Shown piece after piece: positions 17-44,568 of a stretch of 45,971 nucleotides of DNA. The translations under genes were made by a program, and so were the position numbers. The notes beneath the pieces were generated by a model, which ran no database searches, was not told the DNA's origin, and saw only the letters and a program-made list of their open reading frames with translations. The stretch comes from Candidatus Woesearchaeota archaeon (GTDB lineage: Archaea > Nanobdellota > Nanobdellia > SCGC-AAA011-G17 > CAYFGV01). Each line of letters opens with the position of its first letter. The stretch's first letter is position 1. The DNA is taken from NCBI GenBank assembly GCA_964342845.1, contig CAYFGV010000003.1:1-45971 (forward strand), read 5' to 3'.

Positions 17-1804
17 TCACTTTATATATCCGCCTTTTTGTAAATTCCACAATCTCTTATAAACACCTTTTTCTCTTATCAATTTATTATGCTTCCCAAT
101 CTGAACAATTCTTCCTTTATCTAAAACAACAATAGCATCAGCCTTCATGATAGTAGACAATCTATGTGCAATAATAATCGAAGTCCTTCCTTTCATCAAC
201 CTCTCCAAATCTTTTTGAATCTCATGCTCTGTTTCAGAATCTAGAGCAGAAGTAGCCTCATCTAAAACAAGTATTTTCTTATCAGCTAAAATAGCCCTTG
301 CTATAGAAACTCTTTGTTTTTCTCCACCAGATAATTTAACACCCCTTTCTCCAACAATAGTCTTATCACCACTAGGAAATTCTTTTACAACTTTATCTAA
401 CTGAGCAAATTTCATAGCTTTCAAAACATCTTCTCTACTAGCCTGAGGATTTGAAAATAGAATATTAGTATAAATTGTATCATCAAACAAAACACACTCC
501 TGCGGTACAATACTTAATTCTCCTCTCAAGCTTTCTTGTTCAAAGTTTTTAATATTCTTTCCATCAATTAAAATCTCTCCTTCATCAACGTCATACAACC
601 TATACAATAACTTAACTAGTGTAGTTTTTCCAGATCCAGAAGAACCAACAAAGGCAACTTTCTTATTCTTATTTATCTTCAAATTAAAATTAGAAAAGAT
701 CTTCCTTTTCTTATATTTAAAACTCACATTCCTAAATTCAATAGTCCCTTGTTTAACCTTCAACTCCCTAGCATTCTTTTTATCTTTAATATCATTCTCT
801 ACTTTTCCATATTGAAATAAATCTTCAAAGTCAGCCATAGAACCATAAAAGTTCCTTACACCCCACACAAAAGAAAATAAAGGACCCATTAAATTACCAT
901 AAACAGTAAAAATAAAAACCAAAGTACCTAATGTCAGTTCTCCTTCTAAAAATTGTACTATAGGAAAATACATCAAAAGAAGAGTCCCAACACCAATGAT
1001 TAATGTATGTCCAAAATCAAGCCACCTATAATAATCCCAATGTCTAAGTCTAGCGTTCTTAGTTTTCTTACTTAGCCTCGCATATCTATTTCTTATTTTA
1101 GATTCTTTTCCAAAATATTTTATAGAATCTATGTTAGTAAATACATCACTTACATTTGCCTTTTCTATATCTTCTCTTTCATTTACTTTTAAATTAGCCC
1201 CTTGTTGTATATGGTTAATAAAAAGACTATAAGCTATAAAAAGAACAACAGTACATAGCACTACAATAGCAGGTTCTATACTAAAATAAAATAAAGACCC
1301 TGTAACAATTATTAATTGGAAAACCAAAGGAGACAAATTAAACACTAATAGATCAGTCATCCTTTCAACACCCCTAGTTCCCCTGATTAATCTGCTTATC
1401 AAAGATCCAGTTTTGCTTGAAGTATGAAATTTATAAGACAATTGTATAAGGTGATTAAAAAACATTCTCCCTAGATCATACATGATTCCAGAATCTAATC
1501 GATTTACTAAATGAATTTTAAGCAAGTTCCCTACGCTCCTAACAACAAGAATAAAACCAAATACAACAACAATCATCAAAAGAATTTCTATAAATCCGCT
1601 TAATTCTAATGTTTCATTCACAAATTCTGTGCCTCTGTCCACTAAAATCTTAAATAATAATTTATCAACAAGATATGTAGATTCCACTATCAAAATAACC
1701 AAAAGAGTTCCTAAAAACAAAAACTTATATCTCTTTAAAAGATTAAAGTATATCTTAAAGTTATACTTAAAGTCTATTTTCCTTTTTTCCTGAGTATTTG
1801 CCAT
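17..1804 (-). CDS. ABC transporter, fused permease/ATPase (MsbA/MDR-type exporter)
   Basis: 595 aa. N-terminal multi-TM domain, then Walker A GSSGSGKTT, ABC signature LSGGEKQR, Walker B ILVLDEATSALD and H-loop IAHRLST. ATG start. Confidence 0.9.
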   Translation of the reverse strand: MANTQEKRKIDFKYNFKIYFNLLKRYKFLFLGTLLVILIVESTYLVDKLLFKILVDRGTEFVNETLELSGFIEILLMIVVVFGFILVVRSVGNLLKIHLVNRLDSGIMYDLGRMFFNHLIQLSYKFHTSSKTGSLISRLIRGTRGVERMTDLLVFNLSPLVFQLIIVTGSLFYFSIEPAIVVLCTVVLFIAYSLFINHIQQGANLKVNEREDIEKANVSDVFTNIDSIKYFGKESKIRNRYARLSKKTKNARLRHWDYYRWLDFGHTLIIGVGTLLLMYFPIVQFLEGELTLGTLVFIFTVYGNLMGPLFSFVWGVRNFYGSMADFEDLFQYGKVENDIKDKKNARELKVKQGTIEFRNVSFKYKKRKIFSNFNLKINKNKKVAFVGSSGSGKTTLVKLLYRLYDVDEGEILIDGKNIKNFEQESLRGELSIVPQECVLFDDTIYTNILFSNPQASREDVLKAMKFAQLDKVVKEFPSGDKTIVGERGVKLSGGEKQRVSIARAILADKKILVLDEATSALDSETEHEIQKDLERLMKGRTSIIIAHRLSTIMKADAIVVLDKGRIVQIGKHNKLIREKGVYKRLWNLQKGGYIK

Positions 1805-2014
1805 CTTCCTATATACACCATATATATTAAATTTAAATACTTATAAACATATTTACTATTATGCCAGATGAAAACATCATTTTCAACAAATTTATATCGA
1901 AAAAACAAATAGAATCCGCTCTCAAAGACGATGCCGATGAGGATATTATTGAGTAATCATTTCTAATCACACTATTATTTAAGAACCATTATTTATAAGC
2001 TTTTCTCTTGAACT

Positions 2015-2434
2015 TCATTTTTTATAAGATCTTTTAACAACAGCCCTTTCTTTAGGAATCTCATCAAGGCCAGCTTCTTGTTTTAAATAAATACAAATAG
2101 GCTCATAAATTTCACAAATTTCGATAAGTTCTTCCTCATACTCACTTTTATCATAAACCGCTAGTCTTTCTAACCTACTTAAACAAAGTTCAGATTTATT
2201 TGCAATATCTTTCCTCATAGCTCCAAGTTTATAATTTGACTTCCGTTTTTTTAAAATACTCTTCTTTAAAGCTTTATTAAATCCTACAATATCACCTTCA
2301 ATAATCTTAAAATAAATCCTAATCTCAGAAGTAACCCCTTTAGTTCTATCTCCAGAACAATAATCTAAAAAATTTAAACAATTGCTTAATTTCTTAAACT
2401 CTTCCAAACCCAATAAATATCTTAACTGAACCAC
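2015..2434 (-). CDS. hypothetical protein
   Basis: 139-aa ORF with no recognisable motif. The start codon is GTG (cac on the + strand at 2432-2434). Same strand as the neighbouring genes. Confidence 0.4.
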   Translation of the reverse strand: MVQLRYLLGLEEFKKLSNCLNFLDYCSGDRTKGVTSEIRIYFKIIEGDIVGFNKALKKSILKKRKSNYKLGAMRKDIANKSELCLSRLERLAVYDKSEYEEELIEICEIYEPICIYLKQEAGLDEIPKERAVVKRSYKK

Positions 2435-2470
2435 TCAGAAAAGTAGAAACATCAAAACTTATAAATCCTT

Positions 2471-2833
2471 CTAAAAATACTTCTTCAAATCAGCTTCCTT
2501 CTTCTTAACAAAATCTTTAATCTTTCTCCACCCAAGAATCTCTAAATTCTTCTCTGAACCACAATTAGAACATTTCTTAGGAACAATTTCAGTTGTATTA
2601 CTCATCCACTCCCAGCCGCAATCCTTACACAACATACTATATCTTCCAGCACCATCAGAAAATTCTATCCTTCTCTCACGAAAAACAAACAAAACTACCT
2701 CAAAAATAATCACAAACCCAATCAACCCAAAAACACCCTTCAAAATAAAACTATCGACCTCACCAACAAAATAAAAACCAGCCAAACTAACTAAAAACAC
2801 CAAAATATAAACTAAAACTCGCTTTTCAGTCAT
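2471..2833 (-). CDS. membrane-anchored zinc-ribbon protein
   Basis: 120 aa. Two N-terminal hydrophobic helices (LVYILVFLVSLAGFYFV, GLIGFVIIFEVVLFVF), then CKDCGWEW...CSNCGS (CxxC-x21-CxxC). Confidence 0.6.
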   Translation of the reverse strand: MTEKRVLVYILVFLVSLAGFYFVGEVDSFILKGVFGLIGFVIIFEVVLFVFRERRIEFSDGAGRYSMLCKDCGWEWMSNTTEIVPKKCSNCGSEKNLEILGWRKIKDFVKKKEADLKKYF

Positions 2834-2930
2834 AAAAACAGTAATACTTTGAAATATATAAATTTAACCAATCTTTTTAAACACAATAAAAAACTAAGTT
2901 TTACTATTTGCAATGTTTTGCTAATGTAAC

Positions 2931-3500
2931 TCAATTAAAATCATGGCCTTGCTTTTCCAAAAGCATAAAAGGATATCCTCGATAGTCTTCTTCACCAACT
3001 TCAGCTCTAATTTCTTTTGTAATATTATATAAGTATTGCTTAGCCTCTTTTGGGTTATCAAACTTGGTTGTTAACTCAAGTTCTATAAATTCGCCCAATT
3101 CTTTAATTTTATCAACTGATATTTCAACACCTTTATACAGCCAGCTGGATCTTTCCTTTTTTACTTCAACCATTTTTTTAAAATCTAAACGTTCCAATAT
3201 TTTTTTAATAACAAGGCTATTGACAATTGCTTCAAACTCATCACAATAATCTGTCTTCTTTACATTCTCTGGATAAAAGTGTTTATAGTTTAAAACAATA
3301 CTCTTATCTGATTCTCTAACTCGTAACCATTGAAAAGGATAATCAGGTTCTAGAAAATTTTTATGCGTAGGAGTAAAGTATGTATCTACTTGGACTGAGT
3401 TTTCCACTTTTTTTTCTGCAAATTTATTTAGAAAATTAACTACTTGTTCAACATTTTTCAGTGGAAACTTTACTTCTATTTCTATATTATTATGTGCCAT
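2931..3500 (-). CDS. CYTH-domain protein (CyaB-type class IV adenylyl cyclase / triphosphate tunnel metalloenzyme family)
   Basis: 189 aa. N-terminal IEIEVKF (ExExK signature) and a later FIELEL acidic strand. Size is typical of stand-alone CYTH proteins. Confidence 0.8.
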   Translation of the reverse strand: MAHNNIEIEVKFPLKNVEQVVNFLNKFAEKKVENSVQVDTYFTPTHKNFLEPDYPFQWLRVRESDKSIVLNYKHFYPENVKKTDYCDEFEAIVNSLVIKKILERLDFKKMVEVKKERSSWLYKGVEISVDKIKELGEFIELELTTKFDNPKEAKQYLYNITKEIRAEVGEEDYRGYPFMLLEKQGHDFN

Positions 3501-3522: not shown

Positions 3523-5337
3523 TTATATATTTTTGGATAAATCTGTAATAGATAGAATTTTTTTTATTTCTGCCATAAGGTTGAACCTCTTTTCTAGAAT
3601 CTTTTGCTCTCTTTCATTTGATAGGTTTTCTTCATTTTTTTTTGCAAGACTATTCGAGATTATATGGATATAGCTAAAATTTATTCCAGACTCTATAGCT
3701 CCTTTAGCAAAGTGTCCAATTTCAGGATCAACAAAATCAAAATTTTGATTCTTAGAAAACCATTTCTTATCTTCAAGTAATGTTGATGGACTAGTGTAAT
3801 GTGCACCTTTAACCAATATAGGGTTATCGACATCCTCAAAAAGACTATTCCAGTAAATTTTTTTACCCTTAACAAAACTAAATCTTCCTGTTGCGAGATG
3901 GATATTTGGAACTACTTTTTTCTTAAGACTACCTAACTTTCCAATATATACTAGAGATTTTACCCCCAACTCTTTAGCTAAATATTTTGTTACAACTTCA
4001 GAGATATCTCCCCAGAGACTATGTTTGCATCCTAGAAGGGTTAATTCATTAATGCCTATTTTTTCATGTTTATAAAGAAATGCACCCTTTCCTTTCCAAG
4101 AACCAGCACCTCCAAGATTTGTAAGACCAAAACCCATAATAACTATTTTTTTAGGCTGAATCGCACATAGATTAGATTTTAAAACTAAGAGGTTAAGTTC
4201 CTCTAAAGAAGGTTCCAAATAAAAAACGTGGTCATATTTTCTACTATTGATAGCTAAGTAAGTTGCTATCAATGAAGCATAGTGCATAACATAATCTTTC
4301 CCTGTTGGAACAAGAATAGTTAAGACATTGTCTTTTATTTTTGCGGTTGGCCGATGTAGGTTAAATAATTTATCATCTTTTTCGTTATCTCCGATAATTG
4401 CACTTCGATTATATTGGCCTTTAACTAAAATTTTTCTAAATTTTCTCTCTTTTATGAGGTGGTGCATTTTAGTTTCTAGATACTTATAAAGCTGATCTTC
4501 CATTGTATGGTTTAAAACATCTTTTATTACAACAGGATATTTTTCTTCTGAATTAGCAGATTGGTTTAAAATAAATATGTTGTGCTTCATCAATTTATAA
4601 ATTTCTTGGCTAAAATGATCAAAGAAATCTATGGGTTCTTTTGGTTTAGAATAAGGTTGGCCTTTTTCTAATAAAATTTTGCTACTTGCAGTTTTATACC
4701 CTGCACTACTATCATTTCTTTTAATAAATTGATATTTTGATAATTTCTCAAGCTCAAGATTTCCTGAATCAGAAAACCCTAAGAGGTGATGGGGCTTTGA
4801 ATAATCAATAATTCCTTTATTTATTAATATCTTAATAAGGTGTTCTCTATAAGTTATGTTTCCCTTGGGCAGGAAATTATTAAAAAGTTTTGAGACAGTA
4901 AAAGATAAACCTAGATTATCGATTGCAGGATTTCTAGAAAAGATTTCATAACATTTAATATATTCATCTAAATTACAACCTTGGGGAACTGCCATCAGCT
5001 TCATTTCTCCTTTATCTGGTAAAATTCTGATAAATTCTTCGGTTAGTTTGAGTGTTGCATTGTAATCATTAATTACGTCAGGCAAAATTACTTCGTCAGG
5101 TTTAACTAATGAGATACATTTTAATAGACTAGAAAGATTTACAGACTTTCCTAGATAGGGAGCAGAGTTATCTAAAATTATATATATTCCTTTTGCTTTA
5201 ATCTCTTTAACAATTGTAAGGTATTTTTTGCTTTCAAGAATTAAATGAGCCATAACAATACAAACCTGACTAGAATTATCTTCAATGAAATATCTTCGCA
5301 TAAAGTTTATTGGCATGATATTTAAAATTTTGATCAT
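3523..5337 (-). CDS. multidomain protein; C-terminal PNP/UDP-family nucleoside-phosphorylase-like domain, N-terminal alpha/beta (possibly TIM-barrel, transglycosylase-like) domain
   Basis: 604 aa, ATG start overlapping the upstream gene stop (ATGA). The C-terminal region (LLGCKHSLWGD...ELGVKSLVYIGKLGSL...FVDPEIGHFAKGAIESGINFSYIHIISN) matches the strand/loop pattern of the PNP_UDP_1 fold. The N-terminal 260 aa carry ILDNSA, ILPDV, AVPQG and HHLLG strand-end motifs. Confidence 0.7.
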   Translation of the reverse strand: MIKILNIMPINFMRRYFIEDNSSQVCIVMAHLILESKKYLTIVKEIKAKGIYIILDNSAPYLGKSVNLSSLLKCISLVKPDEVILPDVINDYNATLKLTEEFIRILPDKGEMKLMAVPQGCNLDEYIKCYEIFSRNPAIDNLGLSFTVSKLFNNFLPKGNITYREHLIKILINKGIIDYSKPHHLLGFSDSGNLELEKLSKYQFIKRNDSSAGYKTASSKILLEKGQPYSKPKEPIDFFDHFSQEIYKLMKHNIFILNQSANSEEKYPVVIKDVLNHTMEDQLYKYLETKMHHLIKERKFRKILVKGQYNRSAIIGDNEKDDKLFNLHRPTAKIKDNVLTILVPTGKDYVMHYASLIATYLAINSRKYDHVFYLEPSLEELNLLVLKSNLCAIQPKKIVIMGFGLTNLGGAGSWKGKGAFLYKHEKIGINELTLLGCKHSLWGDISEVVTKYLAKELGVKSLVYIGKLGSLKKKVVPNIHLATGRFSFVKGKKIYWNSLFEDVDNPILVKGAHYTSPSTLLEDKKWFSKNQNFDFVDPEIGHFAKGAIESGINFSYIHIISNSLAKKNEENLSNEREQKILEKRFNLMAEIKKILSITDLSKNI

Positions 5338-6146
5338 AACATGTTCTCCTTGACTGAATCAACAACTTTATCCAGAGATTGACTTGCATCAATTTTTACT
5401 AGTTGTACTCCTAATTTTTCTCTTGCTAACAGTACAACATCTAAATAAGTTTTAGCTTGTCTCTCAATTTCCTCATATGTCATAAAATCCCATATTCTAA
5501 ATTTCTTTTTTTGGAAAGAGATTCCTGAATATAAAACATCTAATGACCTATCAATAACAGCTTTTTTAATTTCGTCAGGGGCAGGAATCAATTCAGTTAG
5601 TTTAGAAACTTGTCCACTTATAGGTTCCCTTTCTTCAAGACTCCTACAAACCATTCTAGTATAAACAGTTATAGGATCCACTTCAAATAGAAAAATTTTA
5701 TCCAAGGATAGTTGACTAGTTAAAAATAACCCTTCTTCTAAGATTTCACTTAAATAAGGATTCTTTGAGTTCACTGAAGAAGCATATGCCCAAGACATTA
5801 AAGGTGTTCTGTCTAATAAAGAGACAGATCTCTTTTCATCAAATAGAATTTTTTGGTATTCTTTTACTTGTTGTCTAATGGCTAATCTAAAAATTTTATC
5901 TTTAAGAAAATCTCTTTCTTGTTCTACTGTAAGTCGTCCTTCCCTTCTAAGCCTTTCTCGATAATCTAAAATTTCTTTGAGTCTAAGCATTCTAGGATTG
6001 TCTCCAATTCCGCCGATTTTATTAATTCTTGGAAGATATTCTCTGTCCAAATACCAAAAATTTATTTCTTTAATTGCTGTGCTCTTTCCAGATGCGTTAA
6101 TTCCTTCAAAAGCATATGTTGCTGAGGGTTTGCCGAGTTTTTCCAT
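5334..6146 (-). CDS. thymidylate-kinase-family P-loop nucleotide kinase
   Basis: P-loop FEGINASGKST (compare dTMP kinase EGxDGxGKST), LLDRTPLMSWAYAS (DRy..S..AY region) and a lid-like VDPITVYTRMVCR. The ORF-track start at 6155 is TTG. The ATG at 6146 lies about 25-32 nt from a TATA-like element (6169-6182), so it is preferred. Confidence 0.7.
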   Translation of the reverse strand: MEKLGKPSATYAFEGINASGKSTAIKEINFWYLDREYLPRINKIGGIGDNPRMLRLKEILDYRERLRREGRLTVEQERDFLKDKIFRLAIRQQVKEYQKILFDEKRSVSLLDRTPLMSWAYASSVNSKNPYLSEILEEGLFLTSQLSLDKIFLFEVDPITVYTRMVCRSLEEREPISGQVSKLTELIPAPDEIKKAVIDRSLDVLYSGISFQKKKFRIWDFMTYEEIERQAKTYLDVVLLAREKLGVQLVKIDASQSLDKVVDSVKENML

Positions 6147-19255: not shown

Positions 19256-19295
19256 GTTGTCCACAAATACTTATTTATATTTTGTGTTGTCCACA
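19256..19295 (+). repeat. pair of GTTGTCCACA motifs spaced 30 nt (3' side of fic)
   Basis: Copies at 19256-19265 and 19286-19295. The spacer contains TTATTTATAT. The second copy lies inside the last fic codons. Confidence 0.8.
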
Positions 19296-20215
19296 ATCTC
19301 TTTATATGCTTCTTTAATTTTGTTAATAATAAAATTTAAAAAATCAGAAACATCGCCGTCACGTGCCTTTTCTAAACAATCAGTATATTTAATTCGTTCT
19401 CTAAGGTGAATACATATTGGGGGGAAGCCTTCTTTCACTAGCATAAAATTTAACAACAAACGTCCTGTTCTTCCATTTCCATCTATAAAAGGATGAATAG
19501 CAATAAAAAAATGATGGACGCATGTAGCTAAAATTACAGGATGATATTTATTATTTACGATCCAGCGAATCAAATTATTCATTTCATTATTAACTTCAAG
19601 AGGTTTTGTAGGTGTATGTTTTGATCCACCCATATAAACTTGAATCAATCTAAATTTCCCTGCTTGTTCTTCAAGAATATTAAAAGTGAGATTATAATGA
19701 ATCTGTTTAATAAATTTAGTTGAAATTTTTCCTTTATATTCTTTCATAAATTCGTATGTTTTTCGAGTATTTACAACTTCATATATTTCCCTCAATTCTT
19801 TTCCTTTAGGAGAAATTTTGTCTTCTAAAATATGTGCGGTTTCCTTTAAAGTAAGTGTTGAACCCTCGATAGCATTGGTATTAAAAGTAAAATTAATCAA
19901 ATGTTGCTTTTCAATGACTTTGTATTCCACTGGAGAAAGTTTTTTGATTATTTTCTGATATTCTTTTTTAATTTCTTCGAGTTCCTTTTCTGTAATCTTA
20001 TCTAGTTGGCAAACTTTCCTAATTTTTTTCACTTCTTTCACTTTTTCATGAAGGCCTTGTTTTGCTTGTTCGGCAAGTTTATTTAATTTTTCCCCAGATA
20101 TTTCTCCCTTCCCTAATAATTTTCTAATTTTCTTAAACTTTTCCCCAATCCTAATTGTTTGAGTAAGATAATAAAAATTTTTATTACCACTTTTAATTTT
20201 TTCAATATAAACCAT
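19271..20215 (-). CDS. Fic/DOC family protein (AMPylase-type)
   Basis: 314 aa. Canonical Fic motif HPFIDGNGRTGR. The extra about 100-aa N-terminal region is basic. Confidence 0.9.
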   Translation of the reverse strand: MVYIEKIKSGNKNFYYLTQTIRIGEKFKKIRKLLGKGEISGEKLNKLAEQAKQGLHEKVKEVKKIRKVCQLDKITEKELEEIKKEYQKIIKKLSPVEYKVIEKQHLINFTFNTNAIEGSTLTLKETAHILEDKISPKGKELREIYEVVNTRKTYEFMKEYKGKISTKFIKQIHYNLTFNILEEQAGKFRLIQVYMGGSKHTPTKPLEVNNEMNNLIRWIVNNKYHPVILATCVHHFFIAIHPFIDGNGRTGRLLLNFMLVKEGFPPICIHLRERIKYTDCLEKARDGDVSDFLNFIINKIKEAYKEIVDNTKYK

Positions 20216-29023: not shown

Positions 29024-29422
29024 TTAGACAAAACTAATTAATTCTTCTGGTTTAATTATTTTTACTCCTGCAAATTCTTTTAATTTCAACAGATGTTTGT
29101 CATAAGTTATAAGATATTCTGAAAAAGACTCTATTGCACATTCTAAAATTTTATTATCTTCCGGGTCCTCTATTATAGCTTTAAGTTTTTCTTGTGGTTC
29201 GACTAGTACTAATAAAGGAAGAAGCTTTTCTATTATCTCATCTATTTCTTCAGAACAATATTTAAAATCTCTTTTAAGAACTTTAGAGAACTCTTCTAGA
29301 ATTTCTTTTGTTGTAAAAATCTCAAACTCTTTTTCTACTAATTTACGCAGTAGTCTATGACTTACACTATAATTCCACTGAGTAGCTGAAATTAGAAAAT
29401 TCGTATCCACAGTTATCTTCAT
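29024..29422 (-). CDS. vapC: PIN-domain ribonuclease toxin (VapC-like)
   Basis: 132 aa. MKITVDTNFLI N-terminal acidic motif and later conserved E/D residues. The ATG overlaps the antitoxin stop. Confidence 0.8.
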   Translation of the reverse strand: MKITVDTNFLISATQWNYSVSHRLLRKLVEKEFEIFTTKEILEEFSKVLKRDFKYCSEEIDEIIEKLLPLLVLVEPQEKLKAIIEDPEDNKILECAIESFSEYLITYDKHLLKLKEFAGVKIIKPEELISFV

Positions 29423-29694
29423 TTTTTTGATTTTCTTAATCTATGAATCATCTCTGGAACATCTTTCTCTTTTATCCCTAATTTTTCTGCCCTTTTCGCC
29501 CCTTCTTTAGCAATTTTCCCTAAATCCTTTATCAGTTCTTCTTTTGAAGGAGTTGCTATTTTCTTTAACACAACACTATCTTTGCTACTAACAACAGCAA
29601 AAATAGTCCCTTCTTTAGCATGGATTTCTTCTCTTATGTCTGCAGGGATTACAATTTGTCCCTTTGAAGACATTTTTATTGTTTCAACAATCAT
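29419..29694 (-). CDS. vapB: AbrB/SpoVT-family antitoxin (VapB-like)
   Basis: 91 aa. SSKGQIVIPADIREE swapped-hairpin motif. GGAGGT lies 6 nt upstream of the ATG. Confidence 0.8.
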   Translation of the reverse strand: MIVETIKMSSKGQIVIPADIREEIHAKEGTIFAVVSSKDSVVLKKIATPSKEELIKDLGKIAKEGAKRAEKLGIKEKDVPEMIHRLRKSKK

Positions 29695-34157: not shown

Positions 34158-34379
34158 ATGACAACTACAATCCAAATTAGCAACGAGTTAGTACATATCC
34201 TTAAAAATAGAAAACAGTACGACAATGAAAGTTACGAAGAAGTGATTTGGGATTTATTGGAGGATACAATGGAACTATCTGAAGAAACAAAAAAAGAAAT
34301 AAAACAGGCTGAGAAAGAATTTAAAGAAGGAAAAATAGTTTCTCTTGCAGAAGTTAAGAAGAATTTAGGTCTAAACTAA
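34158..34379 (+). CDS. antitoxin (RelB/ParD-like partner of the downstream RelE)
   Basis: 73 aa and acidic, immediately upstream (1-nt gap) of a RelE-family gene. Confidence 0.65.
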   Translation: MTTTIQISNELVHILKNRKQYDNESYEEVIWDLLEDTMELSEETKKEIKQAEKEFKEGKIVSLAEVKKNLGLN

Positions 34380-34380
34380 A

Positions 34381-34635
34381 ATGTATGGTGTTGAATTCTC
34401 AAAAATAGCTGAAAAACAAATTTATAAATTAGATAAAACAACACAAACTAGAATAATTTCAACAATTGAAAGAGCTAGAATAAGACCTCACACCCATATA
34501 AAAAAGTTAGTTGGAAGTCCTTATTTCGCTCTTAGATCTGGAGAGTATAGGATAATTATCGATTTAAAAGAAGAAATACTTCTAATTTTCGTGATTAAAT
34601 TAGGACATAGAAAAAATATCTATAAAAACCTCTAA
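34381..34635 (+). CDS. relE: RelE/ParE-family toxin (mRNA interferase)
   Basis: 84 aa. YRIIIDLKEEILLIFVIKLGHRKNIY is a typical RelE C-terminal core. Confidence 0.8.
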   Translation: MYGVEFSKIAEKQIYKLDKTTQTRIISTIERARIRPHTHIKKLVGSPYFALRSGEYRIIIDLKEEILLIFVIKLGHRKNIYKNL

Positions 34636-37211: not shown

Positions 37212-37346
37212 ACTTCTATTTTAGAATTAATTCTTTTTAAAGATTTCTATCCAAAAGTAATAACTACTTAAAAATGGTTAACATAGAAACTTTTATAAAT
37301 GCCAATAAATTGTTATTTTAAATAATAAAATAAAGATTATAACAAA

Positions 37347-37706
37347 ATGGCAAAAGATAATTTACCAAAGTTGCCTCCTTTGGAGGAAGTTTTAGGTGCT
37401 GTAACAGGAGAGTCTGGAATAAGTAAGGATATTGGGAATTATCTTGTTGAGGCTATTAGAAATTTATCAGATGCTGAAAGAAAAGAGTTAGCTAAAGCAT
37501 TGAATCTTGCTGAAAATAAATCATATGTTAAAGAACCGGTTGTTATAGACAAACACTGTGCAAAAGGAGATTGTGATATACAGTTTAGTTCTATTGAGGG
37601 GAATAGAACTGTTATTTGTAAATATCTTAGATACGGTGATTGTCGTTATGGCGTTTCCGAGGACTTTCTTTATGTGGTTTGTAATTTTAGTAGTACTTGG
37701 AGATAA
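37347..37706 (+). CDS. Cys-rich small protein, paralogue A (orphan)
   Basis: 119 aa. MAKDNLPKLPPLEEVLGAVTGESG head, NLAENKSYV box and five Cys in the C-terminal 50 aa. Tandem duplicate of the next gene. Confidence 0.6.
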   Translation: MAKDNLPKLPPLEEVLGAVTGESGISKDIGNYLVEAIRNLSDAERKELAKALNLAENKSYVKEPVVIDKHCAKGDCDIQFSSIEGNRTVICKYLRYGDCRYGVSEDFLYVVCNFSSTWR

Positions 37707-37710
37707 TAAA

Positions 37711-38103
37711 ATGGCAAAAGATAATTTACCAAAGTTGCCTCCTTTGGAGGATGTTTTAGGTGCTGTAACAGGAAAGTCTGGAACAAGTAAGAAAAATGCT
37801 TCAGGCGACCTTCTTAAAATTATTCAGAATTTATCGCCTGCTGATAAAAAGAAATTAGCTAAGATTTTGAATCTTGCTGAAAATAAATCATATGTTGAGG
37901 TGCCGGCTCTTATAGAGAAGTATTGTGCAAAAGGGGGCTGTGATATACAACTGGTTTTTAGTGAGGGAGAGAAGGGCATTGTCTGTAGACATTATATAGA
38001 GGATAATGTAGGATATGGTAACTTTATGCTTTGCGGGATAGATCGGCATGAGGAGAATGGAGGATATTGTGCATTTGTTAAGTCTTGGCTTGGATATATT
38101 TGA
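37711..38103 (+). CDS. Cys-rich small protein, paralogue B (orphan)
   Basis: 130 aa from the ATG at 37711 (MAKDNLPKLPPLEDVLGAVTGKSG). The ORF-track start at 37558 is an out-of-context extension across gene A. GGAG lies 8 nt upstream of the ATG. Confidence 0.6.
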   Translation: MAKDNLPKLPPLEDVLGAVTGKSGTSKKNASGDLLKIIQNLSPADKKKLAKILNLAENKSYVEVPALIEKYCAKGGCDIQLVFSEGEKGIVCRHYIEDNVGYGNFMLCGIDRHEENGGYCAFVKSWLGYI

Positions 38104-38105
38104 AA

Positions 38106-39179
38106 ATGGCAAATATAAATAATCAATTAATGGAAATTGGTAAACCTGAAATTAGGAGTGTAGCTTTGCGGAATACAACTCCGTTAGATGCTTTATATGA
38201 TTTAAATCCAGAGATTGCTACTTTAGCTTATGCACATAGAGAGAAATTATTGTCTCCACAGATTCTTCCCTATGTAGCGAGATTTAGAGAGTTACAATCA
38301 GATGAGAGGATTGCGACTATTGGTGCGTTAGTTGAAAAATTAAAGATTGAGACTGGTGCAGAGGTTGCTAAGTACGGTGTTGACGGTCAGGTGGAAATGA
38401 CAAGACTTTCTGAAGATGGTTTAACTACTAGAACAGGTATTGTTCAGGATGGTTTGACTAAGCGGACAAAGATGGAATCTGAGGTTAAGTTTGATTACCA
38501 GAAAAAGATGCACGAGCTTGGAATGCACCATCTTGATAGTCAGGTTGAAATGACAAGATTTTCTGAGGACGGTTTGACTAGACGAGAGGAGATTAGGATG
38601 AATGGGTTGAGGGATCTTCAAAAATTAAAATATGATGCAAATGTTAGGATGTTGCAGAGCCACATAGACGGTCAAAAGTATTTATCTGATAACCAACTTA
38701 AGGCTACGCATGTTGAAGCAGAAGCATATAAACAAGCTATGCAGACTAGAGAGTCCATTAGGGCAGAGACTGAAAGGAGAGTTTCTAAAGATAGGCTTGA
38801 AGAAAAAATAAAGACTGCTGCAATAGAATTTGTAGGAAAGATAAGAGAAGCTGAGATAATGAGAGAGTCAAATCGTACTAAGGTTATGTCAGAAGTGACG
38901 CAGGTTTATATTGAAAAACAAGCAGAACTTTATTTAGCGACAATTGAATCAGAATTGAGGACAGAGGCGATGCAAGGAGAGATTGAAAAAGAGAGAATAA
39001 AAGCAGGTACAGAACGTTATTCTAGTTTTCAAGAAACAATTAGGAATGTTATTGATAATGCAGCTGAAATATTAAAACAAATCCCTAACCTATCCAAAGA
39101 ATCAAATATTAGATTTATAGTAAAAACAGGAGAGCATCCTATAGAGATAAGATATACAAAACACGAAGATAATGATTAA
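38106..39179 (+). CDS. repeat-containing helical protein (orphan)
   Basis: 357 aa from the ATG at 38106 (MANINNQ), 2 nt after the gene B stop. Internal 51-aa-period repeat QVEMTR(L/F)SEDGLT(T/R)R. E/R/K-rich predicted helical C-terminal half. Confidence 0.6.
   Translation: MANINNQLMEIGKPEIRSVALRNTTPLDALYDLNPEIATLAYAHREKLLSPQILPYVARFRELQSDERIATIGALVEKLKIETGAEVAKYGVDGQVEMTRLSEDGLTTRTGIVQDGLTKRTKMESEVKFDYQKKMHELGMHHLDSQVEMTRFSEDGLTRREEIRMNGLRDLQKLKYDANVRMLQSHIDGQKYLSDNQLKATHVEAEAYKQAMQTRESIRAETERRVSKDRLEEKIKTAAIEFVGKIREAEIMRESNRTKVMSEVTQVYIEKQAELYLATIESELRTEAMQGEIEKERIKAGTERYSSFQETIRNVIDNAAEILKQIPNLSKESNIRFIVKTGEHPIEIRYTKHEDND
38386..38432 (+). repeat. intragenic repeat unit 1
   Basis: GTCAGGTGGAAATGACAAGACTTTCTGAAGATGGTTTAACTACTAGA. 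A similar unit recurs at 38539-38585, a 153-nt period. Confidence 0.7.
38539..38585 (+). repeat. intragenic repeat unit 2
   Basis: GTCAGGTTGAAATGACAAGATTTTCTGAGGACGGTTTGACTAGACGA. A further DGLTKR-coding fragment lies at about 38449-38466. Confidence 0.7.
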
Positions 39180-39196
39180 AAAATATTCAAAATAAT

Positions 39197-40222
39197 TTAT
39201 TTATTATTTTTAGACATATAGTTAATTTTATTATATTCTTTCTTAACTTCCGCTAAAATAGAATCTATTAATTTATTTAAATCACCAATTTCTTTTAATT
39301 TTAGTTCTAAACCACCTACTATTTGTAGTGCTTTATCCCTTTCTTCCTTTATGTCTATTGAATCTAGTTTATCTCTAATTTCATCTACAGTTTTGAAACC
39401 CTCAAAATATGTCTGTAAGCAATTGATAATGTCTTCAGATAATTCTTCAATTTTTTTTATTATTTTTTCATTTTTAGCAGAAACACCACCATTTTGATTT
39501 TTTATTTTTTCAAGATTATTATTAATTGTTATTTCTACTTTTCTAAGATTTCTTAACCTAATTAATTCATCTTCTATTTTCTTATCTAAGTTATTTAAAT
39601 GATTCTTAAATGATTTTATCTGTTCCCCTTTGATATCTTTCTTCAATTCATTAGCAAGTTTTAACTCATCTTTATTCATTTTTTTTGAAATTTTAACCAT
39701 TTCATGCCCTTTCTTAGCTTCTTCATAACCTTTCTTAGCCCCTTCAAGCCCTGCTTTAGATTCATACCTCTCTTTTGAAGCCTTACTAACAGCTTTAGAA
39801 GCCTTCCTAATACTTGTTCCTAAAGCCGAATAAATACCAAGACCTAATAACACAAGCAATAATAAAATAGATATCCAAGCAACATCATACAACAAACCTT
39901 GCAACCACATAGCAAAAGGAGTTGCCCATGCAATTAAGAAAGACAAAACAATAGAAAAAACAAGTGCAGCATTCTTATGTTCAGCATCTTTAAATATCTT
40001 AATCTGCCTAGATAAAGGTTGTATTACAGCATATAATAAAGCAGTAACTAATAAAATATACCCTAAACTAGCTGAATAATAACTATAACCAAAAGAACCA
40101 TACCATAAACCATCCCAAACACTATAAAAGAAATAAGAAAAAGGATTTTCATAATAAGCAGCATAAACTTGTTTAACTAACAACAAAAATCCAAACAAAA
40201 ACATTAACAGCCTCTTTTTCAT
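39197..40222 (-). CDS. signal-peptide / 3-TM / long coiled-coil membrane protein (orphan)
   Basis: 341 aa. MKKRLLMFLFGFLLLVKQVYA signal-like N-terminus, an aromatic-rich (Y/W/F) ecto segment, three hydrophobic helices, then about 190 aa of K/E-rich heptad-like sequence. Confidence 0.65.
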   Translation of the reverse strand: MKKRLLMFLFGFLLLVKQVYAAYYENPFSYFFYSVWDGLWYGSFGYSYYSASLGYILLVTALLYAVIQPLSRQIKIFKDAEHKNAALVFSIVLSFLIAWATPFAMWLQGLLYDVAWISILLLLVLLGLGIYSALGTSIRKASKAVSKASKERYESKAGLEGAKKGYEEAKKGHEMVKISKKMNKDELKLANELKKDIKGEQIKSFKNHLNNLDKKIEDELIRLRNLRKVEITINNNLEKIKNQNGGVSAKNEKIIKKIEELSEDIINCLQTYFEGFKTVDEIRDKLDSIDIKEERDKALQIVGGLELKLKEIGDLNKLIDSILAEVKKEYNKINYMSKNNK

Positions 40223-40259: not shown

Positions 40260-41195
40260 CTATGATGGCCTTCTTTTTTCTATCACCTTAGACACTTTTT
40301 CGATAATAGCTCTTTGTCGACTAATTTCATCGAGAATATTTGATAGTTCTTCTGTATCTTTTACTTTTCTTAACTTATCATGAGCAGTAACTATTGCTCC
40401 AAGAGCACCATCAGCTTCTTTTTCAAATTCATCCCAATCCTTTCCTCTATAGCCTGTTAAACCCACTCTTTTTAATTGCTGTATGTTATCTCTCATTTTT
40501 TCCAATACTTTCTCTTGGGATTCAAGATTTTCACCAAGTTTTGCAATATATGAATTAATTTTTGCTACATCCCTCTTTTTTATGGCACTTCTCAAACCTC
40601 TTATTGTTGATTTCTCTTGGCTAGCAAGAACTCTTTCAGTATGTGCCTCTCTTATAGCCTGGGATTGTTTGCCTGCACTTTCTCTAGCTTTGGCAACATT
40701 TAATCCGACATCACCAAATTTCTTGCCTAATCCAGCAACCAACATGTATATTATAAGTCCACCACCACCAAATATTGCTATATATCCTAAAATACCTCCA
40801 AAAATTCCAACCCATTCAAATAATGGAACTAATATACCACCTAATCCTGCAAAAACAACTAAACTAAAAGATACAATTAGACCTAAAATCGTAAAAGACC
40901 ATTTTCGTTCCTCTGCAAAACTCCTAAGTACATCTACTCTAGAACTTACAAGTAACAAAACAAGAAAAAGAATAACAGTCATAACTAAAGCCATTCCCCA
41001 AGTTAAACTGTCACCAGACATTCCCCCTAATTGTACTGTTTTGTTTAAATCAAAAAGACCTTTTAACCATCCTGAAGTAACATCCCAAACCTCTCCTGGT
41101 GTTTTTGGCCCAGCCTCTACAACCCCAGAAAACAAACCAATAAAAAACAAACTAAAAACAATCAAACAAAATATCTTTTTATTATCCATTATCAT
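40260..41195 (-). CDS. signal-peptide / 3-TM / coiled-coil membrane protein (orphan)
   Basis: 311 aa. Signal-like IFCLIVFSLFFIGLFSGVVEA, three Gly-rich TM helices, then an about 150-aa helical charged tail. Same architecture as the neighbouring gene. Confidence 0.65.
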   Translation of the reverse strand: MIMDNKKIFCLIVFSLFFIGLFSGVVEAGPKTPGEVWDVTSGWLKGLFDLNKTVQLGGMSGDSLTWGMALVMTVILFLVLLLVSSRVDVLRSFAEERKWSFTILGLIVSFSLVVFAGLGGILVPLFEWVGIFGGILGYIAIFGGGGLIIYMLVAGLGKKFGDVGLNVAKARESAGKQSQAIREAHTERVLASQEKSTIRGLRSAIKKRDVAKINSYIAKLGENLESQEKVLEKMRDNIQQLKRVGLTGYRGKDWDEFEKEADGALGAIVTAHDKLRKVKDTEELSNILDEISRQRAIIEKVSKVIEKRRPS

Positions 41196-41259: not shown

Positions 41260-42018
41260 ATGCTAAATTTCCTAAAAAAACCAAAACTACCAAGCTCTTT
41301 TGACATAGTTGGCTCTATCTTAATTATAAACGAAAAAATACAAAAACAAAAAAAAGTAGCAAAACTACTCTTAAAAAAACATAAAAACATAAAAACTATT
41401 CTAGTAAAAACAAAACAATATCAAGGAAAATACAGAACACCTACCTTAAAACATCTAAAAGGAATAAAAACAAAAATAACCTACCATAGAGAATCCAAAT
41501 GCATCTTCCATCTAAATGTAGAAAAATGCTACTTCTCTGTAAGATCTGGCTCAGAAAGACTAAGAATAGCTAAACAAGTAAAACCAAATGAAAACATACT
41601 AACTTTATTTTCTGGAGTAGCACCATTCCCATTAATAATAGCAAAAAACGCAAAACCAAAACACATAGATGCAATAGAAATCAACCCAATAGCCCACAAA
41701 TACGCAAAAGAAAACTTAAAAATAAACAAAACAACTAATATCACTCTATACAACCAAGATGTTAAAAAAATCCTACCTAACTTAAAAACCTACAACAGAA
41801 TAATAATGCCATTACCAAAAGAAGCACACTTATACTTAAAAGAAGCTAAAAAACACCTAAAACCAAAAGGAACCATACATCTATACTTATTCGAAAGAGA
41901 AGAAAACTTCAAAAACTTAATAAACAAATACAAAAAACAATTCAAAACAGTAAAATTAACAAAAGCAGGAAAATACGCCCCATCAACCTACAGAATCTGC
42001 TTAGATTTAAAGGCCTAA
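41260..42018 (+). CDS. Met-10+/Trm5-family tRNA methyltransferase
   Basis: 252 aa. SFDIVGSILIINE (the yDivGdiaii motif of Trm5/Taw2) and a SAM-binding region ILTLFSGVAPFPLIIAK...AIEINP. Confidence 0.7.
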   Translation: MLNFLKKPKLPSSFDIVGSILIINEKIQKQKKVAKLLLKKHKNIKTILVKTKQYQGKYRTPTLKHLKGIKTKITYHRESKCIFHLNVEKCYFSVRSGSERLRIAKQVKPNENILTLFSGVAPFPLIIAKNAKPKHIDAIEINPIAHKYAKENLKINKTTNITLYNQDVKKILPNLKTYNRIIMPLPKEAHLYLKEAKKHLKPKGTIHLYLFEREENFKNLINKYKKQFKTVKLTKAGKYAPSTYRICLDLKA

Positions 42019-44568
42019 ATCCAACTTTCTAACTTTTACAGCAGAAGGAGTTTCACCACCATGCCAACTCAGCTTAGGCCTAACACGCATAGGATAAATC
42101 CTTTCAGAATTATCATCTAAAATAATAGCAGAACCTTTCAATCTAGGCAATTCACCCAAATATCTCTGAATATCATTAACCAAATAACTCTGCATCATAC
42201 TATTCAAAGCATCTATATCTTTCTTAGCAGTAACTCTGTGGCTAACTACAATATCTGATTGCGTCATAACATCAGTATGAATCTCTCCTGGTTGTTGTGT
42301 AGCTAACACCAAAGAAATTCCAGGTTGCCGACCTTCACGAAGTAATTGAATCAAAGCATCTGAAGAAGCCACTTTTCCTTCTTTAGGTAAAAACTCATGA
42401 GCCTCATCAATCATCAACCAAACAAAAGGAACCTGTTCTTTATCTTCTTCTAAATCAGAAAAATAACTATATCCAGAACCAATAGTCTGAATCTCTTCCA
42501 TCTTACGACTTAATAATCTATCTTTTAATAATTTTCTTCCTAACAACCCAATAACTAAAGCCTTAATATTCTGATTATCATAAACACTAACATCTAAAAT
42601 ACTAACTCTTCCTCTTTTAATAATTTTACTAACAGGTGTACCCTCTCTGCTAAATAAACCCCAGCCTTTAGCAGCTGAAAACATATTAAATAAACCATCT
42701 TTAACATTCTTTTCAGCTCTTTTATCTTTTTCAATAAACTCCAAAATATCATCTATACTGAAATCATCTTCATACTTATCTCTAACTTCTTCTAAAATTC
42801 TAGAAATCATTATTCCTAATGGATCAACTAAACTAACTTCAAAAATATTACTCCAATCACCTGCATTTAATTCACTAACTTTAATAGAAAAAGAAAAATC
42901 AGCATCAACACCCATTTCTTTATATTTTTCAAAATAACCTTCTGGAACATAAACATCTACCTCTTCCAACTTCTCAGGTTTCAAACCCCATTCCCTAAGC
43001 AAATCTTCATCCCTTTCATTAGGATATTTCATAGTCCAAAAAATTCCCATTGTATCTAGCATAACAACAGATAAATTTTTAGAAACTTCATCAGGCAGTC
43101 TAGCCATTTCTTCTGCCATAACAGAAAGAGAATAACTATTATGAACAATAATATCATTAGCAACAAAATTATGAAAATTAGGAACAGAAATATCATAAAC
43201 TTTAAATTTACCTTCCATAATCTTCATCTCAATAATTTCATCCCAAAAAATATCAGATTGAGCTAACAACTTTAATTGTTCATTCTTATCAATTTCCGCA
43301 ATCTGTAACAAGGTTTTCCTCGAAGGACAATACCTAATCCTTTCTCTCATAGCCTTTGCATAAGCATAACCGAATCCCCTTCCAATTTCAGCCCAATTAG
43401 ATGGTCTGTAAATATCCCAAATTCCTTTAGGAATTGTATCAACATTAGGATTTTTAACCACTGTAATAACTTCATTCAAACATTGTTCTTGTTTTTTAGC
43501 TTTTTCTCCAAAAAATCCAATTTCCTCGATAAATTTAACAGTATTTTCAGAATTTACAAGTAGTTCAAAAGTTTCAAATTCTTTTTTATTACACTTTACT
43601 GTTTTTGTCCTTAATTTAGAAATAATTCCGAACCTCAAAAGAATATTCTGTACTTGTTTTATTAGCTTACTAGAAGAAGAGGAATATGAAATCTCCCAAC
43701 TATTCTTAGTTTTATATAAACTCCCATCACAGGAGAACAAACGACTTAAAAATAAACTTAAACTTTCTTTATTTAATTTAAAAATTTCTTCAGGAATCCA
43801 CTTTTCTTTAGCATAATAACCATAGCAACCAAGAGATTTCAACCAACTTTTTACAGGATTTTCCCTAAAACTATATCTATTATCTTTGTTAGCAACTCTA
43901 TAACATCCAGGTTTACTATGCAAGTCTACTTGTAAGTCTTTGTCAAATCTAAAGATACTCTCTTTAAAATCATTAAGGATAATCTCATCAGAATTGCTAA
44001 ACAACACCCAGCTTTGCCTGGTGTGCCCCTCAGCAATCAAATAAGCCAATATTTTGATTTTATAATCCTCCATAACTTCACTACCAAAAACATCAATTTT
44101 TCTTGGAGTAGCTATTCTACTTCCTAAATTTAATTCTTCAGCTGGGCGCCAACCTTTTACAGTCAATAAAGGATGTTCTGGAGTTAATTTAATCTCTTTT
44201 CCACTTCTTAGTTTTAAATATAATATTTCCTCTACTTCTCTTTCAAAAAAATCATTCTTTTCTAATTGCTTAATTTTCAGATTATTATCTAAGCCAACAG
44301 CACAACTGTCATTATCCTTTAAATTCTGGATAGGAACCTGTCTTCCGTCATCTAATTGGATTAATGTATCTCCTAAAAGACACTTACCTTGGCCTCTCTT
44401 ACCGCTAACTAAAACAACATGAGCCTTAGCCACATCCATATAAACCTCGTTACTCAACGAAGTAGAAGTCCCCATCTTAACATACTGCTTTCCTAGAAAA
44501 ACTAAGCCTTTATCACCAAATTTCTTTTTATCTCCTTCATCTCTTCCAATCACAGTCTTATAACCCAT
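42007..44568 (-). CDS. HerA/DUF87-type (FtsK-HerA superfamily) ATPase interrupted by an intein
   Basis: 853 aa. Joining the exteins gives 438 aa with Walker A GKRGQGK|S, Walker B VWLMIDEAHEF and LATQQPGEIHTDVMTQSDIVVSHRV, typical of HerA-like ATPases. Confidence 0.85.
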   Translation of the reverse strand: MGYKTVIGRDEGDKKKFGDKGLVFLGKQYVKMGTSTSLSNEVYMDVAKAHVVLVSGKRGQGKCLLGDTLIQLDDGRQVPIQNLKDNDSCAVGLDNNLKIKQLEKNDFFEREVEEILYLKLRSGKEIKLTPEHPLLTVKGWRPAEELNLGSRIATPRKIDVFGSEVMEDYKIKILAYLIAEGHTRQSWVLFSNSDEIILNDFKESIFRFDKDLQVDLHSKPGCYRVANKDNRYSFRENPVKSWLKSLGCYGYYAKEKWIPEEIFKLNKESLSLFLSRLFSCDGSLYKTKNSWEISYSSSSSKLIKQVQNILLRFGIISKLRTKTVKCNKKEFETFELLVNSENTVKFIEEIGFFGEKAKKQEQCLNEVITVVKNPNVDTIPKGIWDIYRPSNWAEIGRGFGYAYAKAMRERIRYCPSRKTLLQIAEIDKNEQLKLLAQSDIFWDEIIEMKIMEGKFKVYDISVPNFHNFVANDIIVHNSYSLSVMAEEMARLPDEVSKNLSVVMLDTMGIFWTMKYPNERDEDLLREWGLKPEKLEEVDVYVPEGYFEKYKEMGVDADFSFSIKVSELNAGDWSNIFEVSLVDPLGIMISRILEEVRDKYEDDFSIDDILEFIEKDKRAEKNVKDGLFNMFSAAKGWGLFSREGTPVSKIIKRGRVSILDVSVYDNQNIKALVIGLLGRKLLKDRLLSRKMEEIQTIGSGYSYFSDLEEDKEQVPFVWLMIDEAHEFLPKEGKVASSDALIQLLREGRQPGISLVLATQQPGEIHTDVMTQSDIVVSHRVTAKKDIDALNSMMQSYLVNDIQRYLGELPRLKGSAIILDDNSERIYPMRVRPKLSWHGGETPSAVKVRKLDLGL
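43138..44382 (-). mobile_element. intein with LAGLIDADG homing-endonuclease domain (415 aa)
   Basis: Starts at Cys63 (CLLGDTL; codon 44380-44382) and ends VHN477 (Asn codon 43138-43140), followed by Ser+1. Block B is LTPEHPLL. LAGLIDADG motifs are KILAYLIAEGH and LFLSRLFSCDGSL. Confidence 0.85.

Follow-up and report, generated by a model that had tools for sequence, protein, structure and literature searches.

A conserved N-terminal head on tandem Cys-rich proteins of a Woesearchaeota archaeon, a candidate docking motif for an adjacent coiled-coil protein

Two tandem genes on a 45,971-nt stretch of DNA from a Candidatus Woesearchaeota archaeon (contig CAYFGV010000003.1, positions 1 to 45,971; hereafter the window) encode small cysteine-rich proteins that begin with a nearly identical head. 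These genes (gene 1 and gene 2) belong, as a tandem pair, to an undescribed small-protein family of the Nanoarchaeota (DPANN archaea), and they are followed by gene 3, which encodes a conserved coiled-coil protein. Conservation of a motif within the head, selection and gene conversion acting on it, the homology and diversity of the tails that it precedes and its strict adjacency to gene 3 are all directly supported by the data. In our estimate, the head has about even chances of being a short linear motif that docks onto one shared partner, for which the N-terminal domain of the gene 3 product is the most plausible candidate.

The window is a segment of archaeal chromosome with a G+C content of 30.5%, and marine (Tara) metagenomes are the source of the contigs that match it, identically or nearly so. 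Gene 1 and gene 2 are separated by 4 nt, the gene 2 stop codon and the gene 3 start by 2 nt, and all lie on the same strand; the three genes form an operon-like arrangement with the pair at the front and gene 3 in third place. An earlier note on this DNA, made from the sequence alone, had described the pair and had missed this context, that is, a three-gene operon headed by the pair and completed by a conserved partner. The public call of gene 2 (P0001) starts at ATG 37672 and gives a protein of 143 residues that overlaps the 3' end of gene 1 out of frame. Because of the homology to gene 1 and of a GGAG located 9-12 nt upstream, 37711 and not 37672 was taken as the true start. Genes 1-3 and their neighbours gave no match above threshold in Pfam, NCBIfam, PADLOC or PHROGs, and PDB sequence and profile searches with gene 2 returned nothing significant. 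Inspection of the head-protein sequences revealed neither a signal peptide nor a hydrophobic stretch.

The head is widely distributed in the family. A motif with the consensus L-P-x-[LIM]-P-[PS]-L-E-[ED]-[VIL]-[LM]-x-x-hydrophobic was found in 26 proteins and in a second paralogue at locus L030 (related loci and proteins are designated by L and P numbers). In the 26 proteins, the motif starts 4-18 residues from the N-terminus; P and L are invariant and the remaining residues nearly so. Sixteen of the 18 loci that contain a gene 3 homologue, all of Nanoarchaeota type, carry one to three motif-headed genes directly upstream or downstream of it, often as two or three tandem copies. The earlier note had proposed a leader module on interchangeable cargo, an idea that a head confined to these two genes would have refuted; the head occurs on many proteins besides the two in the window and in front of four types of tail. 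Apart from these, the motif pattern had no match in a six-frame search of about 100 kb of non-redundant sequence, made up of the window and L001-L023. One head protein, P0026, was identified by sequence alone. Its gene comes directly after that of a gene 3 homologue and precedes the second tagged paralogue (L030). Since this locus was reached from a head protein, its adjacency to gene 3 is free of the bias of a search anchored on gene 3. Full-length profile searches added only P0024, P0026, P0029 and P0030, and the contig of P0029 ends at the P0029 stop codon and thus gives no neighbour information. P0025 (764 aa, eight profile matches) was discarded as spurious, being a translated satellite-like repeat. 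Patterns of the head and of a second shared peptide (the box, see below) found no relatives in JGI metagenomes or GTDB genomes. All database members of the head-protein and gene 3 families are unnamed or labelled hypothetical, and literature searches yielded no account of the motif or of the two families.

Head-like segments were also seen away from the N-terminus. A 191-aa L013 paralogue contains two Cys modules with a head-like LPSLNEV between them, and several L013 and L025 proteins end with a head-like LPG[FYI][ED][ED] (L013 2589-3164; L013 3171-3995; L025 4666-5004). As judged from these sequences, such internal and terminal segments suggest a unit duplication or a second docking site.

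In order to separate conversion from selection, substitutions between gene 1 and gene 2 were counted per segment with the Nei-Gojobori method. The mosaic reported in the earlier note (an 81-nt head with three differences, an identical 30-nt block, an indel, unequal C-termini and five Cys in each protein) was confirmed in every element. All three head mismatches, at positions 42, 64 and 74, are non-synonymous (E14D, E22K and I25T), and the indel is a single codon located after codon 27. The first 40 nt of the head are present in exactly two copies in the window (0 of 100 shuffles matched), and a repeat search of the window picked up the pair as two repeats, one of 96 nt (93% identity) and one of 158 nt (75%). 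The mosaic is stronger than had been claimed: over the 27 codons of the head, no synonymous difference was counted for 18.5 synonymous sites (proportion of synonymous differences, pS, of 0), while pS is 0.65 in the middle and 0.56 after the box, which is near saturation. Under a simple binomial model, the probability of such an absence of synonymous change is about 1e-7 or less. Because purifying selection on the peptide would have spared synonymous differences, this pattern indicates a recent gene conversion that made the heads of the window pair alike. Confined to the window clade and not conserved family-wide, the 30-nt box is probably a second small conversion patch.

Similar counts on other tandem sets reveal the contribution of selection. 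In L013, L022 and L028, the head shows a proportion of non-synonymous differences (pN) of 0.02-0.08 for a pS of 0.30-0.55, and the remainder of the proteins a pN of 0.26-0.65. The peptide has thus been kept in spite of codon drift, which shows long-term purifying selection on the head. The L025 paralogues 2 and 3 have a pS of 0 in the head and of 0.58 elsewhere; hence head conversion recurs independently of the window lineage. Together, these data show that both processes put forward in the earlier note, gene conversion and selection, act on the head.

The C-terminal parts were compared across the whole family. The earlier note had regarded the Cys tails of the pair as different. They are indeed diverged but they are not unrelated, since 22 Cys tails can be aligned on a single scaffold, C-P-h...G-x-G-x-I-x-h...h-x-C-x-[YH]...C...C-x-[FY] (h, hydrophobic), in which C1-C3 are invariant, C4 is present in 21 of the 22 and a putative hairpin lies between the first two Cys. 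The marine clade has an additional Cys four residues after C1. The window tails fit this scaffold and are therefore fast-diverging homologues rather than unrelated cargo. Three other tail types follow the head in some proteins: L008 (2220-2711) has a coiled coil, a globular tail without Cys is found in L015 and L023, and the tail in L028 weakly resembles TPR, its best TPR_2 match (17.7 bits) being below the cut-off. The notion of interchangeable cargo holds in that four tail types exist, and it fails in that most tails are homologues of a single four-Cys module. The head proteins measure 86-215 aa in total, with linkers of about 10 to about 90 residues and tails of up to 190 residues, and the pN/pS of the tails is below 1 wherever it could be estimated.

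The conserved Cys are isolated, being about 12-30, 8-40 and 5-30 residues apart, and form no CxxC pair. No curated family (zinc-finger and zinc-ribbon families of Pfam and NCBIfam included), defence-system model or solved structure matched the module. The best Pfam match was zf-CCCH, in gene 1 only, with 16.3 bits and hence below the cut-off of 20.5, and the best PDB profile match was CPSF4 (E = 1.8). Four conserved Cys in proteins that lack a signal peptide make a metal site the default expectation, and the module is probably a metal-binding domain as predicted from its sequence. Small Cys proteins are known in other archaea: the C(P)XCG zinc-finger micro-proteins of Haloferax volcanii have fewer than 70 aa and two C(P)XCG motifs (PMC11241148), and their role is mostly undefined (PMC11241148, PMC6562870). 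The present proteins resemble them as small archaeal Cys proteins for which zinc binding would be expected, but differ in size (119 and 130 aa for genes 1 and 2, 86-215 in the family), in the absence of a CxxC pair and in the presence of the N-terminal head.

The only close outside relative, P0003, is encoded on a 688-bp ENA contig (L001, ERZ841001; 1.5x coverage), where it takes the place between gene 1 and gene 3. Its head has the same nucleotide sequence as that of gene 2, its middle part is gene 1-like (synonymous divergence dS 0.25, non-synonymous divergence dN 0.02) and its Cys tail has no nucleotide-level alignment to either window gene. L001 and the window are 100% identical over the 307 nt that end where the gene 2 head does; beyond this point the two diverge abruptly, and the start of gene 3 is only about 90% identical. 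L001 was downgraded as proof of recombination, since at this low coverage the junction may be an assembly join across the head repeat rather than a true recombinant allele. With or without such a join, a closely related strain has a protein in which a conserved middle is followed by a wholly different Cys tail, and it may carry this tail in slot 2.

About 20 homologues of the gene 3 protein were collected, with 29-51% identity; those that are named are labelled as Nanoarchaeota, Nanoarchaeia or Woesearchaeota metagenome-assembled genomes, and none has a Pfam domain. The AlphaFold2 model of gene 3 built from 20 homologues has a mean pLDDT (per-residue confidence) of 69 and a pTM (overall confidence) of 0.60. 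Of the eight columns that are invariant in the family alignment, six fall in the small N-terminal helical domain, which is modelled with confidence and is the best-conserved part of the protein. It is followed by a low-confidence repeat region (aa 85-157) made of GLTxR-type units, the number of which varies among homologues, then by long helices (aa 152-325) and a terminal beta-hairpin. Internal direct repeats at 38361-38427 and 38514-38580 correspond to units of the type VDGQVEMTR.SEDGLT.R. Foldseek (PDB and BFVD) returned only generic coiled-coil noise (E > 0.1), and a PDB profile search gave no significant match either. No relative of gene 3 was found in IMG/VR. Given this result and the conserved chromosomal neighbourhood, in which the module is flanked by TYW2 and FEN-1 both in the window and in L030, a viral or mobile origin was rejected.

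We favour the reading in which the head docks onto the gene 3 product. Physical binding is what we infer from these results, along with the biological role that it would serve. Each protein consists of the N-terminal LPxLPPLEEVL motif, a linker that differs in length and a C-terminal module that also varies, usually the four-Cys one. According to this model, the head, which is probably a proline-started amphipathic acidic helix, would tie each paralogue to one partner, and between one and three different Cys modules could be mounted on a single gene 3 scaffold. With every copy required to fit one receptor, the head would be held constant by strong purifying selection, with periodic homogenisation by gene conversion in tandem arrays, and the tails would be free to diverge rapidly. 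Docking would account at once for the adjacency to gene 3, the N-terminal position of the head, the unrelated tails, the selection confined to the head and its repeated homogenisation.

Several points weigh against this interpretation. Gene adjacency denotes a functional linkage and does not specify which protein is the receptor. Locus sampling was anchored on gene 3 and covered about 5 kb on each side of it, so that further head-bearing genes may lie elsewhere in these genomes. Two gene 3 loci have no clear head gene: the upstream side of L017 is cut off, and L020 shows a degenerate motif inside a 270-aa protein. The large protein searches returned only three to seven family matches each, so the family is small and sparsely sampled. 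Finally, the AlphaFold2 monomer of gene 2 (six-sequence alignment) has a mean pLDDT of 44 and was unusable, no fold search being made with it; at this low confidence it gives no more than a hint of helical structure at residues 12-20, of a pair of helices in the linker and, between C1 and C2 of the scaffold, of a beta-hairpin.

Leucine-rich docking motifs that start with a proline exist in eukaryotes and archaea: the Rev-type nuclear export signal has the sequence LQLPPLERLTL, and MIM2-type motifs, (L/V)Px(V/L)P, bind MIT domains. The LPxLPPLE-hydrophobic pattern of the head resembles these peptides, which dock in grooves of helical domains, although the resemblance is perhaps coincidental. 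Neither a CRM1-like nor an MIT-like domain was detected in gene 3 by Pfam, Foldseek and PDB profile searches at the level of the whole protein.

The head could alternatively be an export or sorting signal, the Cys-rich proteins being secreted or surface effectors of an episymbiont with extracellular disulfides, and gene 3 a chaperone, an adaptor or a part of the export machinery. We consider this unlikely. Fast-evolving tails, tandem copies numbering one to three and a possibly different slot-2 tail in a related strain are typical of host-interaction proteins, and Nanoarchaeota populations show elevated non-synonymous variation in hypothetical surface proteins (PMC6142677), a diversification that would agree with export. 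Signal-peptide membrane proteins are encoded near the module at five loci, and the L011 module lies between pilin-like genes and a prepilin peptidase. However, these membrane and pilus neighbours are not conserved across loci and no secretion ATPase is consistently linked. Moreover, the head is acidic, lacks a hydrophobic core and any class III, Sec or Tat feature, and is followed by no conserved cleavage site, and the tails evolve with a pN/pS below 1 where this could be estimated.

A simpler account would be that of an ordinary recent tandem duplication with patchy conversion, the head being merely the best-conserved N-terminal element of a single-domain family. Conversion tracts can by themselves yield a mosaic, the clade-specific box is probably such a tract, and the homology of most tails would fit one family with uneven rates. 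We nonetheless hold this account to be distinctly improbable, because the motif heads four unrelated tails over linkers of very different lengths, because it persists in lineages with gene 3 proteins of just 29-40% identity, and because in L013, L008 and L028 the head is the sole segment recognisably conserved between paralogues, despite synonymous turnover. The absence of synonymous divergence beside saturated flanks, recurring in an independent lineage, is reminiscent of tandem families in concerted evolution. Unlike in plain concerted evolution, the converted segment coincides here with a motif under family-wide purifying selection, conversion being superimposed on selection. A diversity-generating retroelement was also considered and set aside: no reverse-transcriptase domain was detected among the window genes scanned, and the tails differ at about half of all positions and not at adenines only.

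The segment L-x-x-LEEVLGAVTG of the window pair had been loosely likened to double-glycine leaders. Like the leaders of class II bacteriocins, the head covers about 20 N-terminal residues, among them spaced hydrophobic ones and acidic ones, and is borne by small tandem Cys proteins. It could on these grounds be the leader of ribosomally synthesised and post-translationally modified peptides (RiPPs) or bacteriocin-like precursors, recognised by a maturase or transporter and then removed, an idea to which the Cys-rich cores and the radical-SAM/SPASM gene following the gene 3 homologue in L013 and L014 lend some colour. The likeness did not survive closer comparison, and we regard a leader function as very improbable. 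No GG, GA or GS site is conserved: no two neighbouring positions have Gly in the majority, and no post-motif position is mostly Gly (maximum 9/26). Peptidase_C39 has no match in the window or the related loci, and the only ABC exporter of the window (17-1804) lacks a C39 domain and lies 35 kb away. There is no conserved maturase, the radical-SAM/SPASM gene being absent from the window and the other loci. In addition, the members reach 215 aa, and their long tails include domains unlike those of peptide precursors, such as the coiled-coil and TPR-like ones.

That the identity of the heads reflects a functional RNA or DNA element (a translation-control structure or a binding site), as their lack of synonymous change and a perfect CCUCC-UUU-GGAGG hairpin in both could suggest, is scarcely credible, since the 110-nt regions fold no better than shuffles (z = +0.37 and -0.65), have no Rfam match, and other lineages keep the peptide but neither the nucleotides nor the hairpin. 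In the DNA, this hairpin (CCTCC-TTT-GGAGG; 37374-37386 and 37738-37750) arises from the P-P-L-E codons, and its arms are anti-Shine-Dalgarno-like and Shine-Dalgarno-like.

Encapsulin cargo-loading peptides and bacterial microcompartment (BMC) encapsulation peptides are short terminal tags on varied proteins encoded beside a shell gene. The head resembles them as a conserved short terminal peptide carried by variable proteins whose genes lie beside that of a candidate partner. In contrast to these systems, no HK97-fold or BMC (BMC-H/BMC-P) shell gene was found in the window or the related loci, the candidate partner is modelled as an elongated coiled coil with a small helical domain, and the motif sequence is unrelated. 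The analogy with cargo-loading tags made in the earlier note hence finds no shell to rest on, and its analogy with polymorphic toxins fares no better: Pfam and PADLOC detected no toxin domain in the head proteins, and no immunity gene was seen, the next gene being a paralogue or gene 3 and not a variable small partner. The principle of a terminal tag on variable proteins encoded beside their partner is known elsewhere, but the components are new, and they appear restricted to DPANN archaea.

Two membrane-protein genes are found downstream of gene 3 on the opposite strand, and similar membrane proteins are encoded near the module in L008, L016, L021 and L030 (as analogous pairs in the last three) but not in the remaining loci. 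As they are present at a subset of loci only, they were rejected as core components. A small two-helix membrane protein ending in EVPIY.G...[IV].[GA]Y[RH] is encoded near the module at four loci and has no counterpart in the window. The L011 module lies between a run of pilin-like genes with class III signal-peptide-like N-termini (68-3325) and a prepilin peptidase gene (Peptidase_A24; 5165-6016). The radical-SAM/SPASM gene of L013 (5002-6108) is placed directly after the gene 3 homologue and is limited to the lineage of L013 and L014. Elsewhere in the window, an 853-aa DUF87/HerA-type ATPase contains an intein with a LAGLIDADG endonuclease domain (42007-44568, minus strand), and a PIN/MazE-like pair (29024-29694, minus strand), a ParE-like toxin with a 73-aa upstream partner (34158-34635, plus strand) and a Fic-domain protein (19271-20215, minus strand) are encoded. 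The positions of the module features are summarised in Table 1.

Table 1. Features of the module in the window and at related loci (positions refer to the window unless a locus is named).
Feature	Position	Strand	Description
Gene 1	37347-37706	+	119 aa; head, helical linker, Cys module; open reading frame and translation
Head of gene 1	37347-37427	+	27 codons; repeat spans 37339-37434
Core motif of gene 1	37362-37394	+	LPKLPPLEEVL, aa 6-16; fits family consensus
Identical box in gene 1	37500-37529	+	30 nt, LNLAENKSYV, inside helical linker
Cys module of gene 1	37557-37703	+	Cys 71, 76, 91, 99, 112; fits family four-Cys scaffold
Gene 2	37711-38103	+	130 aa; tandem paralogue of gene 1; start ATG 37711
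Head of gene 2	37711-37791	+	Repeat spans 37703-37798; nucleotide-identical to head of L001 allele
Core motif of gene 2	37726-37758	+	LPKLPPLEDVL, aa 6-16; fits family consensus
Identical box in gene 2	37867-37896	+	30 nt, exact copy of gene 1 box
Cys module of gene 2	37924-38100	+	Cys 72, 77, 92, 108, 120; fits family four-Cys scaffold
Gene 3	38106-39179	+	357 aa; coiled coil; conserved partner
N-terminal helical domain of gene 3	38133-38357	+	aa 10-84; pLDDT about 79-88 over aa 11-80; candidate head receptor
Membrane protein	39197-40222	-	Signal peptide, multi-pass, coiled-coil tail; weak match to L008 3-827; possible accessory component
Second membrane protein	40260-41195	-	Same architecture as 39197-40222; possible accessory component
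Two-helix small membrane protein	L016 1387-1656
Two-helix small membrane protein	L021 5234-5491	-
Two-helix small membrane protein	L028 3338-3604
Two-helix small membrane protein	L030 530-814
Heads	L008		MSNDDLPGLPSLKEVL and MGNDNLPRLPSLKEVL
Head	L011		MRIEDLPEMPSLEDVL
Heads	L013		Three copies of MNINNLPKIPSLEEV/IM
Head	L016		MDLDDFKLPPLEEVL
Heads	L022		YKLPELPPLEEVL, two copies
Head	L024		MEESLPDLPPLELVM
Heads	L025		LPSLSELE, three copies
Head	L026		MQESLPKLPPLEEVM
Heads	L028		LRLPPLEEV/IL, two copies

DPANN archaea have tiny genomes that encode largely hypothetical proteins, and to our knowledge little is known about the organisation of their envelope or their dealings with hosts. The present module has two parts and is kept across Nanoarchaeota-type lineages, in which the partners retain about 30% identity and an 11-residue motif stays nearly unchanged on changing small proteins. 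It offers a candidate protein-protein recognition code, in which a candidate receptor domain of about 75 residues would recognise a peptide about 20 residues long, and a natural example of selection and gene conversion jointly fixing a shared interface while the attached modules diverge. A further step, which we put forward as doubtful, would see the head as the address label of a DPANN-specific targeting system, in which gene 3 would be a scaffold or export adaptor that, possibly with the recurrent membrane proteins, recruits a rapidly evolving set of tagged modules, Cys-rich and other, to the envelope or to the symbiont-host contact site. If true, archaea would possess in this system an equivalent of tag-directed effector or cargo delivery that is not homologous to any known system. 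Should the tails reach the surface or the host, such proteins could be predicted genome-wide from the motif in uncultivated DPANN archaea.

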